Sequence record: MT446413.1
Strand: one strand, 5' to 3'
DNA from: Escherichia virus TH42
DNA length: 64,000 nt
Shown: piece after piece, positions 15,962 to 50,897 of the stretch
How the letters are laid out: the number at the start of each line of letters is the position of its first letter
Numbering within the stretch: the first letter of the stretch is position 1
Notes under the pieces: model-generated
Database searches by the model: none
Seen by the model: the letters and a program-made list of their open reading frames with translations, nothing else
Told to the model about the DNA's origin: nothing
Program-made: the position numbers and the translations under genes

Positions 15962-16210
15962 TTACTCTGTGGCTCCGTCAAAGCGAAGGATTGCTGTTGG
16001 AACAGGGATTACAACCATATCAAAATCTAAGCGGAAGAGGTGTCCTGTGCTCAGTTGAACTGCTGTTACAGGCTTAGCAATTCCTGAGACTTCTGCGGAA
16101 GGGATTCTGATAAAGAATTCTCCCGGATACTCAGGTGAATGAAACACTTCTCCCGCTGTCATATTTACCAACTTAATGTCGGGTACGGGTTGTTTATTTT
16201 CAATTTGCAT
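15962..16210 (-). CDS. small protein, PG(D/E)xF paralog family
   Basis: 82 aa; MTAGEVF...PGEFF and C-terminal VIPVP; followed by conserved hairpin element. Confidence 0.45.
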   Translation of the reverse strand: MQIENKQPVPDIKLVNMTAGEVFHSPEYPGEFFIRIPSAEVSGIAKPVTAVQLSTGHLFRLDFDMVVIPVPTAILRFDGATE

Positions 16211-17083: not shown

Positions 17084-17341
17084 TCAATAGAAGGTGTGTG
17101 TAGAGTCGTCGTTCATAGATAACCAAACGAAGAAGACAATCACACAGAAAGCAATAATACCGAGAATTGCAAGGATTATAGTGTTAGCTAATGTGATATC
17201 TAACACGCTTTGCAGATACATAAAGAACTGTACGACACCACATATCATTAGCACGACACCAACAACAATGAGGAGCCAATATGTGCAGAGAAGGGCTGCA
17301 TCCAATAGTGACACATATTTTGGATGATCTTTACGTTTCAC
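17084..17341 (-). CDS. membrane protein (two predicted TM helices)
   Basis: 85 aa; LLCTYWLLIVVGVVLMICGVV and ILAILGIIAFCVIVFFVWL. Confidence 0.45.
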   Translation of the reverse strand: MKRKDHPKYVSLLDAALLCTYWLLIVVGVVLMICGVVQFFMYLQSVLDITLANTIILAILGIIAFCVIVFFVWLSMNDDSTHTFY

Positions 17342-17600: not shown

Positions 17601-17855
17601 TTATTCCTTAATAATTGCTTCAGCTTTAATAGGAATAACAGCAACATCTTTACGAGGCGCTGTCGCTCGGCCTGTGTTAAGACAGGCTACAAGTCTATGC
17701 TCGTCCGCACCCTTAATGCACAAGCGAGTGGAGAACTCTGTAGAGAGTAAGATGTATAAATCACCATCTTCACTGTTAGGGTACATGAAGCAATCCCCAA
17801 GTCGCAAAGCACTGAGGGGTATTGAATTTTTACCTGCTGGCATGTTAACTTTCAT
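17601..17855 (-). CDS. small protein, PG(D/E)xF paralog family
   Basis: 84 aa; LSALRLGDCFMY ... LYILL ... VAVIPI. Confidence 0.45.
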   Translation of the reverse strand: MKVNMPAGKNSIPLSALRLGDCFMYPNSEDGDLYILLSTEFSTRLCIKGADEHRLVACLNTGRATAPRKDVAVIPIKAEAIIKE

Positions 17856-18132: not shown

Positions 18133-18399
18133 TTACTTAGTAATAAAGACTGTCACCTTATCCATTACCCAGCCTATCAACATAAGTAAAGGTAAGAAGA
18201 GGATAAAGATCAGCATAAAAGGCCAGAAGAATATCACCGTCCAAATAGAGTATTCATCAGGCTTACCACTCCATGAGGAATGGAAGAAGTTGTAGAGTGT
18301 ATTGGTTTTAAAGCACCATTTAACTACAATGGCTGCCAACCACCAACCAATAACATAAATCAGGAGGACATACGCTGCTGTAACCATTGACCGTTCCAT
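18133..18399 (-). CDS. membrane protein (multiple TM helices)
   Basis: 88 aa; highly hydrophobic (VLLIYVIGWWLAAIVV, FFWPFMLIFILFLPLLMLIGWV). Confidence 0.45.
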   Translation of the reverse strand: MERSMVTAAYVLLIYVIGWWLAAIVVKWCFKTNTLYNFFHSSWSGKPDEYSIWTVIFFWPFMLIFILFLPLLMLIGWVMDKVTVFITK

Positions 18400-18614
18400 T
18401 GATAGTTGCGAGTTACCACGTTTCCGTGGATAAGGAAGTGCTGGCGGCGAAGGATATCTTTAACGTTGTAGTAGGCAGCGTTACCGAGATGGCCTTCTTT
18501 GATAAGCCAGCGCAGATTACGAATATCAACCAACAACATGCTTACTTGTTGCTTGCATGAAGTCTGAGCCGCTGTTTCAATCAGAGATTTCGTATCAGAA
18601 TAATGACCAGACAT
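18360..18614 (-). CDS. hypothetical protein
   Basis: 84 aa ORF; overlaps downstream gene start. Confidence 0.35.
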   Translation of the reverse strand: MSGHYSDTKSLIETAAQTSCKQQVSMLLVDIRNLRWLIKEGHLGNAAYYNVKDILRRQHFLIHGNVVTRNYQWNGQWLQQRMSS

Positions 18615-18615
18615 A

Positions 18616-18915
18616 TCACCACTCCTTACCTGTTGTTGTCACAGAACCACCACACCACAATGCCGTATCAATCACAACCTTGTCTGGTGTAGACTTCTCT
18701 TCGTTGATAGACGGGTTGGCATTAGAACAGGTTGCCCCGTTGTAGCGCATATCAATCTCACCACTAGGAACCTTGTTCCCTGAATGCCAGCGAGATACGC
18801 ACACACCTTCTACCGATAATGCACACCATCCATCAGGACGATGCTGTACACAGCCTGTAAGAGCTACACAGGCGATAAAGATACAGGTTAAGGTAATTAC
18901 ACCACCCCAGCTCAT
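18616..18915 (-). CDS. Cys-rich lipoprotein
   Basis: 99 aa; signal peptide with lipobox LTGC ([12 protein letters not shown]); six further Cys. Confidence 0.55.
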
Positions 18916-19052
18916 GATCCCTCCTGAAGCGCCTTACGGCGGCTATCTCGCCAAGCCATCCATAGGTAGGTTTTAAGTTCTTCTCTTTCTTCTTCGCTGA
19001 ACAAAGGAGAAGTAAAGATATCATCGAACCACTCATTAAACTCAGGGGTCAT
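18912..19052 (-). CDS. possible small protein (46 aa), translationally coupled to lipoprotein gene
   Basis: ATG with GGAGG SD; [31 protein letters not shown]...; stop TGA overlaps lipoprotein ATG; preferred over track ORF 18833..19036. Confidence 0.3.
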
Positions 19053-19072
19053 AAACCCTCCTATTTGATTTG

Positions 19073-19224
19073 GTGGACTATCTGGAATCGAACCAGAAGC
19101 TCACTAAGAAAGCAATTCCCACTGTTATAAAAGCACTTGCCTCAACAGGGATACACTAACTCTGGTGCCGTACCCATACTAGCCCTTGTTTAAAATTGGT
19201 CGGGACGGAAGGATTCGAACCCTC
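19073..19224 (-). other. two tRNA 3'-half-like motifs (T-arm plus acceptor 3' strand) with no detectable 5' acceptor partner
   Basis: Minus strand TCTGG-TTCGATT-CCAGA (~19081-19097) and GAGGG-TTCGAAT-CCTTC-CGTCCCG-A-CCA (~19197-19224, CCA encoded). Confidence 0.3.
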
Positions 19225-19248
19225 TTACGTTGATTTAAAAGCTCTTAG

Positions 19249-19327
<79 letters not shown>

Positions 19328-19568: not shown

Positions 19569-19733
19569 TTAGATCAGATCTGTTTTCTTGTGCAGACCAC
19601 ACACTTTACAGCGAGAGTAGATACGCAACCCTTGTCGCTCTCTGTCAGTAAGTTTATTTGTGATCGTCAGTTCATAAGTATGAAGATCTTCCCACTCATG
19701 GAAATGAAAGAAACGTTTGAACCATTTAATCAT
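19569..19733 (-). CDS. small zinc-finger-like protein (tandem paralog 2 of 3; unlisted 54-aa ORF)
   Basis: MIKWFKRFFHFHEWEDLHTYELTITNKLTDRERQGLRIYSRCKVCGLHKKTDLI; ATG 19731-19733; below track size cutoff. Confidence 0.4.
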   Translation of the reverse strand: MIKWFKRFFHFHEWEDLHTYELTITNKLTDRERQGLRIYSRCKVCGLHKKTDLI

Positions 19734-19742
19734 AATGATTCC

Positions 19743-19904
19743 TTAGATTACATCACGATGACTAACATCACCACACACCTTACACTGAATAACGTAACGT
19801 GTGCCCTTGTCATTGTTCCCATCTGAATCTGTATAGACCAGAGGACGGGTGTTAATAATCTTCCAATCATGACAATGGAAGACACGCTTTAGCCATTTAA
19901 TCAT
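19743..19904 (-). CDS. small zinc-finger-like protein (tandem paralog 3 of 3)
   Basis: Start at internal ATG (MIKWLKRVFHCHDW...CKVCGD). Confidence 0.4.
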   Translation of the reverse strand: MIKWLKRVFHCHDWKIINTRPLVYTDSDGNNDKGTRYVIQCKVCGDVSHRDVI

Positions 19905-19905
19905 A

Positions 19906-20196
19906 CTAAGCACACGCCGGTAATTCAATTAACTGAGGAGTACGACAAGGGCCATCCTCATACACACCTACTAGTGTTGGCATGTAAGGCCCAGCGCACT
20001 GGTATTCATCGAACAGTTCGTTATAGGTAGGCTTCCACTTCCAAGCCCACACATAGCCCATTCGATCAATGGCAATGTAACGAGTGTTCAGAGGAACCTG
20101 CATCATCACATCACCAACTGCTATTACTTTCGTAATAACTGCTGCTCGGAAGTTTGTCTTCATAGTCTCACCGCTTAACCATAAATTGATACTCAC
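19906..20196 (-). CDS. hypothetical protein
   Basis: 96 aa ORF in operon context. Confidence 0.4.
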   Translation of the reverse strand: MSINLWLSGETMKTNFRAAVITKVIAVGDVMMQVPLNTRYIAIDRMGYVWAWKWKPTYNELFDEYQCAGPYMPTLVGVYEDGPCRTPQLIELPACA

Positions 20197-21687: not shown

Positions 21688-21912
21688 TTACTTGTTGGTC
21701 AGTCTAACATTAGGTACACGATATACCTCTGTTGGTTTACGATCAGAGGAACGTTTACCAGTGTAGAGGTTAACAAAATAGGTTTTGTGTTCCCCATAAC
21801 ACGAAGTACACATGTAGTATTGGGTTTCAGCAGTATTAAACTGGAAGACTTCACCCGGCTCTAAATCACCGAGAGTTACAACCGCTGGTGTATTGTCGAT
21901 ATCAATCTTCAT
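21688..21912 (-). CDS. small protein, PG(D/E)xF paralog family
   Basis: 74 aa; LGDLEPGEVFQF ... VPNVRLTN; followed by conserved hairpin element. Confidence 0.45.
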   Translation of the reverse strand: MKIDIDNTPAVVTLGDLEPGEVFQFNTAETQYYMCTSCYGEHKTYFVNLYTGKRSSDRKPTEVYRVPNVRLTNK

Positions 21913-22143
21913 TTAACCACCAATATTCGTTACTTGTACATTAGGTACAGAGATAACTTCATGATCTTCAGGTATCTGGAACAAAGTCCCCTGACCAAGA
22001 CCAACGACACGGTGCATACCCTGCACATAGGTGTCTGTCTTTAGGTAGAGGTGTTCAGTGTTATTTTGTAATCGGAATACGTCACCCGGACGTAACTCAC
22101 TAAGCTTTTTAGTAACAACTTCAGAGGAGAGATTGATTTTCAT
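21913..22143 (-). CDS. small protein, PG(D/E)xF paralog family
   Basis: 76 aa; LSELRPGDVFRL ... VPNVQVTN; tandem duplicate of 21688..21912. Confidence 0.45.
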   Translation of the reverse strand: MKINLSSEVVTKKLSELRPGDVFRLQNNTEHLYLKTDTYVQGMHRVVGLGQGTLFQIPEDHEVISVPNVQVTNIGG

Positions 22144-49874: not shown

Positions 49875-50897
49875 TTGGAGGTACTTATGGGTGCTGGAGG
49901 TTTTCGTAAGAATACTGGAAGAAACAACACCACACTTCCCTACAACGTTGGGTTTTTAAACAATGTAGAGGATACGGATAAATATAACGTTGCAGTTTAT
50001 GATGAATTGCAGAAAGTCAGTACAGCAACTAACCAGATGTTCCAAGCAATCGACGAGATTCATGAAGAAATAGATGTTCGTATTAAAGCTCTTAATGCAA
50101 TGAACCTACAGTTTGATGAACTTGAGAACCGAATTACTACAGAGATTGAAACAGCTATTGCTGATATTCAAACACAGATGGGTAATCTTTCTACTGAAGA
50201 CATTTGGGATAGAAGCACTAACCCTCCGACTAAACTGGATGGTACAGTTGCAGGTTTCAAAACTTCTATTGAAGGTAATGATTTAAAGATTCAGACAGTA
50301 CAAGGTATTGTGAATGAACAAGGACAAGAGATTGCTTTAGTTCAGACAGAACTTACTGCTCAAGGTACTCAGATTGCTGAAGTGGATGGTAAGGTTACTA
50401 CTGTACAGAATTCTCTTTCTCAATACATGAGACTAGATAGTTACGAAGCTACATGGGGTGTCAACTCTTCTATTAATGGTCAGTACGCTGGTGTTAAACT
50501 AACTAACAACGGCACGAACAGCCAATTCCAAGTAACGGCTAATAAATTTATTGTTGGTGATGGCAACTCTGGTAATACTCCTTTTGTTTTTGAAGGTGGT
50601 AGAGCTAGAATGGAATTCGCTGATATCAAGAATGTCAACATTACAACTGCTCAGATTGCTAATGCTCGAATCCAATTTGCTCAGATTGATAACGTATGGA
50701 TTCAAGATGGACAGATTGCTAACCTTACTGCTAACAAGATTACTGCTGGCTCTATGAGTGGTTCAAACTGGAGACTTACTGTTGGCGGGGATTTTGTGAT
50801 GGGTGGTACAGGCGGTTCTCAGTTGTGGATGAACGGTAATAGAATAGATTTTTATGATGGGAGTGGAACTCTTCGTATAAGAATAGGGAGTTGGTAA
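49875..50897 (+). CDS. tail fibre-like protein
   Basis: 340 aa; N-terminal coiled coil then repeat-like IANARIQFAQIDNVWIQDGQIANL. Confidence 0.45.
   Translation: MEVLMGAGGFRKNTGRNNTTLPYNVGFLNNVEDTDKYNVAVYDELQKVSTATNQMFQAIDEIHEEIDVRIKALNAMNLQFDELENRITTEIETAIADIQTQMGNLSTEDIWDRSTNPPTKLDGTVAGFKTSIEGNDLKIQTVQGIVNEQGQEIALVQTELTAQGTQIAEVDGKVTTVQNSLSQYMRLDSYEATWGVNSSINGQYAGVKLTNNGTNSQFQVTANKFIVGDGNSGNTPFVFEGGRARMEFADIKNVNITTAQIANARIQFAQIDNVWIQDGQIANLTANKITAGSMSGSNWRLTVGGDFVMGGTGGSQLWMNGNRIDFYDGSGTLRIRIGSW

Follow-up and report, generated by a model that had tools for sequence, protein, structure and literature searches.

T5 Llp is a small, early, disulfide-containing lipoprotein of the outer membrane that docks on the periplasmic side of the receptor used by its own phage and keeps the RBP from attaching; a FhuA-Llp structure has been reported (PMC9586334). 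Closer to the protein described here are Rtp45 of siphophage Rtp (PDB 9RPS chain D; UniProt Q333D9) and SE-Oeko (Bas18_0026), its closest known relatives. In the cryo-EM complex with Shigella LptDE and LptM (Dunbar et al., PNAS 2025, PMC12685063), Rtp45 occupies the periplasmic side of the closed LptDE, near strands 5-8 and between LptE and LptM; it contains a Cys30-Cys38 disulfide, and its partly beta-stranded hairpin reaches up the LptD lumen. Extracellular loop 4 (EL4) of LptD is shifted by up to 20 Å, which would prevent an RBP from binding (PMC12685063). T5 Llp relies on long-range allostery in a TonB-dependent transporter, whereas Rtp45-type proteins physically displace a loop of LptD. 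In the accessible text of the Rtp45 report, the exclusion role is deduced from the structure and from the position of the gene (PMC12685063).

In siphophages the lipoprotein gene directly precedes the RBP gene, the order being rtp45 then rtp44 in Rtp and p52 then p51 in Shfl1. According to a 2026 preprint, four unrelated RBP families are found at this locus, each tied to one receptor; the Rtp44 family, with more than 30% identity as the criterion of membership, is the one specific for LptD (10.64898/2026.04.02.716166). Cor of phages T1, phi80 and N15, linked to exclusion at FhuA, sits at the same position of the siphophage host-recognition locus and has the same size and a similar signal peptide as the protein described here.

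Among podophages, a precedent for the use of LptD is the Pseudomonas N4-like phage DEV, which belongs to a different phage family and infects a different host from the phage studied here. According to the accessible text of a January 2026 paper, which names DEV as the first podophage for which use of LptD was proposed, its gp56-gp55-gp54 proteins engage O-antigen first and then LptD, and a gpJ-like fibre carries a separate RBP; a keyword search of that text returned no exclusion lipoprotein (PMC12892993). For the Gordonclarkvirinae, the BASEL completion paper gives O-antigen as the receptor, presumes LPS core for the short fibres and names no protein receptor (PMC11990801), and a 2023 review described the receptors of phage SU10 as unidentified (PMC10743462). 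Our literature search found no paper naming LptD as the terminal receptor of this group.

Here we describe a lipoprotein gene of a Gordonclarkvirinae phage whose product belongs to the Rtp45 family and, judged by homology and genomic context, probably acts in superinfection exclusion. The family itself is known; what is new is a member whose architecture deviates from that of Rtp45 and whose gene is unusually placed in the genome.

The lipoprotein gene and its surroundings

The window, by which we mean the whole 64-kb stretch of DNA analysed, is 85-96% identical in this region to many Escherichia podophages of the Gordonclarkvirinae (Kuravirus, Suseptimavirus), and its phage is a Gordonclarkvirinae podophage of the Kuravirus type. 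In comparison with such GenBank records as IME267, the window spans the conventional genome ends, with the early region at ~15-22 kb and the tail genes at ~47-56 kb. The early and middle genes of these phages are oriented opposite to the late cluster (PMC8948821), and the window agrees with this arrangement. The SU10 ortholog of the lipoprotein is SU10_0104 (CDS 104), annotated as 'putative lipoprotein'. Because this gene falls within CDS 69-125, the SU10 early genes as assigned by synteny with phiEco32 (PMC4281155), we place the lipoprotein gene in the early cluster.

An earlier, sequence-only reading of the window had described a lipobox LTGC and a signal peptide in this 99-aa ORF, and both are present exactly as described (Table 1). 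The hydrophobic stretch, residues 5-23, has a mean Kyte-Doolittle value of 2.35. The n-region contains neither Lys nor Arg, an uncharged state that is kept in the Gordonclarkvirinae orthologs of the family alignment; a signal peptide without positive n-region charge is atypical, although it is conserved here. After the lipobox Cys the sequence continues as VQHRPDGWC, so that the +2 residue is Val, not Asp. In E. coli, the +2 rule governs Lol sorting of lipoproteins to the outer membrane, and from this residue the protein is therefore expected to reach the outer membrane via Lol. The reading had also counted six cysteines besides C22, and that number is correct; only four of them (C31, C39, C63 and C88, in the mature part) survive processing, C11 and C16 being located in the signal peptide, while the seventh cysteine, C22, is the site of lipid attachment. 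When all six frames of the window were scanned under relaxed conditions (ORFs of at least 25 aa with ATG, GTG or TTG starts), this was the only ORF to combine a lipobox with a hydrophobic stretch. With its match of 122 bits to the family profile described below, the feature is not a product of chance.

Table 1. Coordinates of the lipoprotein gene, its parts, its neighbours and the associated tail genes in the window
Feature	Position	Strand	Remarks
Lipoprotein gene	18616..18915	minus	ATG start, 99 aa; PF24052 / PHROG 4281 member, Rtp45 homolog
Signal peptide of lipoprotein, residues 1-21	18853..18915	minus	n-region MSWGG; h-region with C11 and C16
Lipobox L19-T20-G21-C22	18850..18861	minus	G21 and C22 invariant in family alignment
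Rtp45-like core, residues 23-62	18730..18849	minus	RPDGWC31...GVC39 and hairpin motif
Lineage-specific insertion, residues 63-88	18652..18729	minus	bracketed by C63 and C88
Conserved C-terminal segment ending KEW	18619..18651	minus	common to Rtp45, FZ10 and Shfl1 homologs
Upstream 46-aa ORF	18912..19052	minus	PHROG 9481, function not assigned; no TM segment
Downstream 84-aa ORF	18360..18614	minus	PHROG 13462; no TM segment
88-aa ORF, two TM-like segments	18133..18399	minus	nearest membrane protein to lipoprotein gene
tRNA and tRNA-like region	19071..19327	minus	directly upstream of lipoprotein gene string
Tail needle	49875..50897	plus	SU10 gp18 ortholog; coiled coil and Pfam Phage_Tail_Tip domain
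DUF6453 (PF20051) protein, 344 aa	50899..51933	plus	SU10 gp19 ortholog; Rtp44 / RBP-Oeko homolog

The gene is part of a tightly packed string, since the TGA of the 46-aa ORF overlaps the lipoprotein ATG as ATGA, with GGAGG four nt upstream, and the 84-aa ORF begins 1 nt past the lipoprotein stop codon. The translational coupling to the 46-aa ORF that had been proposed from the sequence is real in this genome and lineage-specific: SU10 has no 46-aa ORF, and SU10_0104 follows the tRNA-like element and has its own Shine-Dalgarno. The 46-aa ORF is therefore not an obligatory partner. The supposed flanking by membrane-protein genes applies not to the immediate neighbours, neither of which has a TM segment, but to the 88-aa ORF and to a second two-TM ORF further downstream (17084..17341). 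The C-terminal codons AAG GAG TGG of the lipoprotein (18619..18627) double as Shine-Dalgarno for the next ORF (ATG at 18612..18614). The 84-aa ORF and the 88-aa ORF overlap by 40 nt (18360..18399), and a similar overlap of 28 nt is annotated in SU7; the true start of the 88-aa membrane protein may be the internal Met5. Neither the lipoprotein nor its neighbours matched anything in NCBIfam or PADLOC.

Within the tRNA and tRNA-like region, Rfam called a tRNA at 19249..19327 (36.4 bits) that was missed by ARAGORN, which reported no tRNA in the window. Positions 19197..19231 hold an orphan 3' half-tRNA comprising T-arm, acceptor and CCA. A 115-nt tRNA-like element at 19071..19185, ending in ...GGTTCGATTCCAGATAGTCCACCA, is kept in SU10; ARAGORN called it only at relaxed thresholds, as tRNA-Arg(tct) or as an intron-containing tRNA. 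A scan for sigma-70 promoters gave more sites in shuffled sequence than in the real one and was set aside, and terminator-like sites in the window are suggestive only. The early region also contains small tandem paralogous ORFs, one pair at 19569..19733 and 19743..19928 (41% identical, E 5e-12, with a C-terminal CxxC) and another at 21688..21912 and 21913..22143 (31% identical, E 1.5e-9), the latter pair being weakly similar to 17601..17855 and 15962..16210.

Relationship to Rtp45 and to other exclusion lipoproteins

Residues 3-99 of the lipoprotein cover all 80 positions of the profile HMM PF24052, 'Phage lipoprotein family', with 122.2 bits and an E value of 8.7e-36 (cut-off 27 bits); Rtp45 itself scores 128 bits. 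The protein also matches PHROG 4281. Among all PDB sequences, the sole meaningful match was 9RPS chain D, that is Rtp45 (E 3.2e-15). This match is not due to the signal peptide, because the two mature sequences, compared without it, still show 52% identity over 42 aa. Matches to designed armadillo-repeat proteins in the PDB, with E values down to 2e-11, were spurious, being sums of insignificant repeats with per-domain E values of 48-80.

The alignment of the family comprised the window protein, its Gordonclarkvirinae orthologs, Rtp45, a homolog from a Klebsiella Webervirus and a homolog from a T1-like Shigella phage. Invariant across it are the lipobox G-C, the cysteines C31 and C39, and residues G29, G37, G46, G52, D55, R57, G60, G90 and E98. 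C31 and C39 align to C30 and C38 of Rtp45, where they form the disulfide pair. In the hairpin and the C-terminal part, P50, G52, E53, D55, R57, G60, G90, E98 and W99 are invariant or nearly so, and the motif VP(S/A)GE(I/V)D(M/V)RY-G together with the C-terminal G-(S/T)-V...K-E-W is kept across the aligned members. The window protein thus has in common with Rtp45 and SE-Oeko the PF24052 domain, the lipobox, the C-x7-C pair, the hairpin motif and the C-terminal G-(S/T)-V...KEW, as well as an E. coli/Shigella host and a DUF6453 RBP gene in the same genome.

The proteins differ in length (99 aa against 76 aa in Rtp45), in the n-region, which unlike that of Rtp45 and SE-Oeko has no positive charge, and in placement: our gene is part of a podophage's early cluster, with the RBP gene ~32 kb away, while rtp45 lies immediately upstream of the RBP gene in a siphophage. 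Rtp45 also lacks the 26-aa insertion and the second cysteine pair. An insertion at this site, variable in length (19-34 aa), is carried by the Gordonclarkvirinae lipoproteins. Its cysteine pair C63/C88 is invariant in the insertion-bearing homologs and absent from Rtp45, FZ10 and Shfl1; the two residues probably form a disulfide-closed loop. Three features set the Gordonclarkvirinae proteins apart: the uncharged n-region, the two cysteines within the signal peptide and the Cys-bracketed insertion. Identity to Rtp45 does not extend beyond the core, and binding could be altered or directed elsewhere by the insertion.

This bears on the possibility that the fold has been retargeted, so that the insertion-bearing Gordonclarkvirinae variant would bind another outer-membrane protein or none. 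The insertion, not found in Rtp45, speaks for it, as does the identity of the genome's DUF6453 protein to Rtp44, which at 23-24% is below the >30% threshold (10.64898/2026.04.02.716166). Against it stand the conservation of the core residues and of both termini and the finding that T1 Cor, the FhuA-type protein chosen for comparison from among the FhuA, BtuB and YncD modules, is non-homologous beyond the signal peptide. We give such retargeting only a very slight probability.

A profile search of 1.84 billion representative proteins returned 19 clusters, 15 of which are lipoproteins of 73-109 aa. The remaining four, long repeat proteins, were judged spurious: P0013 upon inspection of its long and repetitive sequence, and P0023, P0026 and P0027 from their length and multiple matched stretches. 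The PF24052 family is tiny, uniform, narrow and phage-borne. An AF2 model of the lipoprotein built on an 11-sequence alignment reached a pLDDT of 46, was unusable and was discarded; AF3 failed likewise for Rtp45, according to its authors (PMC12685063).

Homology to Rtp45 (9RPS_D, E 3e-15, both proteins in PF24052) supports the suggestion, made from the bare sequence, that the gene is a candidate for superinfection exclusion or receptor blocking. The accompanying analogy to T5 Llp holds for function and not for descent: Llp was not returned from all PDB chains at E values up to 10, either by single-sequence search with phmmer or by profile search. By analogy, we propose that the lipoprotein works like T5 Llp, and from its homology we predict that its target is LptDE, not FhuA. 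Homology to Cor was likewise rejected, since hhalign of the family alignment against T1 Cor covered just 24 columns, all in the signal peptide; on PF24052, T1 Cor scored 17.7 bits, below the 27-bit cut-off. By these comparisons, the mature domain of T1 Cor is unrelated to the lipoprotein. The signal peptides of T1 Cor (MKKLITIIAAAFILTGC; gene at L039 9624..9851) and of Shfl1 p52, the LptD-type lipoprotein of that T1-like phage (MKKLIAIITAAFILTGC; gene at L003 3992..4222), are near-identical while their mature domains are unrelated, a pattern that suggests module exchange just after the lipobox.

The DUF6453 protein and the co-occurrence of its gene with the lipoprotein gene

A search of the window with Rtp44 identified the DUF6453 ORF (tblastn E 9e-13), whose product aligns to Rtp44 over nearly the whole length with 23-24% identity (pairwise E 6e-16). 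On PF20051 it scores 82.8 bits against a cut-off of 25, compared with 379 bits for Rtp44. Its sequence matches the solved RBP of phage Oekolampad (9RPT_C) with an E value of 2.5e-8. An AF2 model of the protein (pLDDT 85.7, pTM 0.87), when compared with the PDB by Foldseek, matched 9RPT_C alone significantly (E 2.5e-12, target-normalised TM 0.81), the next match having an E value of 0.35. By this model, the protein has the fold of the LptDE-bound RBP-Oeko, and we propose it as the cognate RBP of the lipoprotein. The identity to Rtp44 is below the >30% used to delimit the LptD-specific RBPs, so receptor specificity is not automatically transferable.

Immediately upstream, the tail needle aligns with the C-terminal part of the lambda-J-like Rtp43; translation may in fact begin at the ATG of codon 5. 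The siphophage order of J tip and then RBP is thus kept in the window as needle and then DUF6453 gene. The N-terminal motif M-(A/G)-x-G-I is conserved between the siphophage RBPs and the window protein. In SU10, virion preparations yielded 34 proteins, which included gp16-18 and gp20-24 but not gp19 (PMC4281155). Nor does gp19 figure in the text of the SU10 structure paper or in its cryo-EM model; at 15 Å, the needle tip is not resolved there.

In siphophages the two genes are neighbours: in 20 of 21 siphophage-type IMG/VR loci, the DUF6453 gene starts just downstream of the lipoprotein gene. This adjacency fails in the window, where ~32 kb separate the genes (18.6 kb against 50.9 kb). In the Webervirus Klebsiella phage FZ10, both are present ~10 kb apart. 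The lipoprotein and DUF6453 genes are thus found together in three phage lineages, and their spacing takes three forms: adjacent, 10 kb apart and 32 kb apart. By tblastn, 382 GenBank phage records matched the lipoprotein and 431 matched Rtp44, with near-equal taxon profiles for the lipoprotein and Rtp44, respectively: Escherichia (270 and 276), Klebsiella (52 and 64), Shigella (25 and 30), Campylobacter-labelled records (7 and 7), Veterinaerplatzvirus (4 and 4) and Dhillonvirus (4 and 4). At an identity of at least 60%, ~100 Gordonclarkvirinae records contain the lipoprotein and ~91 the DUF6453 protein. Salmonella phage 7-11, a distant relative, still has the nozzle protein (34% identity) but is devoid of all three of needle, DUF6453 protein and lipoprotein.

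Several PF24052 genes are 'orphans' in their surroundings. One lies in the replication module of the Webervirus FZ10, away from the RBP gene; another is found on a large phage contig that also encodes NAMPT, PRPP synthetase and TerD (Logan SRR28250349_233), and a third, on an IMG/VR contig, neighbours a gene of 954 aa and has no tail genes around it.

Proposed function and its alternatives

We propose the following sequence of events. Made early in infection, the lipoprotein would be exported, lipidated at Cys22 and delivered by Lol to the inner leaflet of the outer membrane. There its disulfide-stapled core would dock on the periplasmic rim of the LPS translocon LptDE and its beta-hairpin would be pushed up the LptD lumen, holding extracellular loop 4 in a conformation that LptD-dependent RBPs cannot engage. 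The infected cell, and later its envelope debris, would no longer take up or waste phages that require LptD. As a cell has just ~400-600 LptDE complexes, an early gene could saturate this target. Because the genome carries an Rtp44/RBP-Oeko-type protein behind the needle, exclusion would most likely be directed at phages of the same kind and at any siphophage that depends on LptD. Points that weaken this reading are the distance of ~32 kb between the gene and its presumed RBP gene, the atypical n-region, the insertion outside the Rtp45-like core and the fact that exclusion by Rtp45 is deduced from structure and gene position.

Should the lipoprotein be the cognate partner of the DUF6453 protein encoded in the same genome, LptD would be the terminal receptor of the Gordonclarkvirinae (Kuravirus, Suseptimavirus and Nieuwekanaalvirus). 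On this proposal, to which we give even chances, the gp19-type DUF6453 protein on the J-like tip of the needle would bind LptD and the lipoprotein would be its cognate exclusion factor; a siphophage module of J tip, RBP and superinfection-exclusion lipoprotein would have moved into a podophage and been split between the late and the early transcription units. Counting against it are the absence of gp19 from the SU10 virion proteome, the lack of resolution of the needle tip at 15 Å, the identity to Rtp44 of less than 30% and the fact that exclusion by Rtp45 is itself deduced.

The lipoprotein might instead be a weapon against competitors only, blocking LptD to unrelated LptD-dependent siphophages while the podophage itself enters otherwise. 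Such a role would accord with the literature, in which O-antigen is the receptor, LPS core is presumed and a protein receptor does not figure (PMC11990801), with the failure to detect gp19 in the SU10 virion proteome (PMC4281155) and with the 'orphan' lipoprotein copies away from RBP genes in other lineages. We nevertheless consider it unlikely, for the genome encodes a DUF6453 protein with the fold of an LptDE-bound RBP behind a needle with a J-like tip in siphophage gene order, the Webervirus 'orphans' also have a DUF6453 gene elsewhere in the genome, and lipoprotein, DUF6453 protein and needle are jointly missing from phage 7-11.

Binding to LptDE could also serve to modulate LPS export rather than to block a receptor, such that plugging the translocon would halt the insertion of new LPS and O-antigen or weaken the outer membrane, aiding infection or lysis. 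The hairpin of Rtp45 does occupy the LptD lumen of the closed translocon (PMC12685063), the ~400-600 LptDE per cell would be saturable by an early phage protein, and the phage depends on O-antigen (PMC11990801). Yet the tight linkage to the RBP gene in siphophages is the signature of a receptor-specific exclusion factor, LPS already in place would presumably not disappear within one infection cycle, and an inhibition of LPS transport by Rtp45 is hypothetical. This role is therefore highly unlikely in our estimate.

A function in lysis, as an outer-membrane lipoprotein of the o-spanin type, has an almost negligible probability, even though the gene is the sole lipobox ORF in the 64 kb, the late lysis cassette of SU10 has no annotated spanin and cysteines are common in o-spanins. 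We rejected it because no i-spanin with a TM segment is encoded next to or around the gene, the lipoprotein has no C-terminal TM segment that would make it a u-spanin and just 3 Pro in its 78 mature residues, the gene lies in the early cluster far from holin and endolysin (the SU10 holin and lysis genes are SU10_014/015), and a homolog, Rtp45, is seen on LptDE (PMC12685063).

Exclusion at LptDE by an Rtp45-family lipoprotein thus remains our preferred reading. Phages of the Kuravirus type are common, infect a broad range of hosts and serve in therapy work. As both halves of an LptD recognition-and-exclusion pair are found in these genomes, the question of their receptor becomes directly testable. 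LptD is essential and hard to mutate, which bears on the evolution of resistance. Furthermore, receptor-specific exclusion genes can uncouple from the RBP gene and move into the early programme; because the two can part, genome-based prediction of receptors should not rely on adjacency alone.
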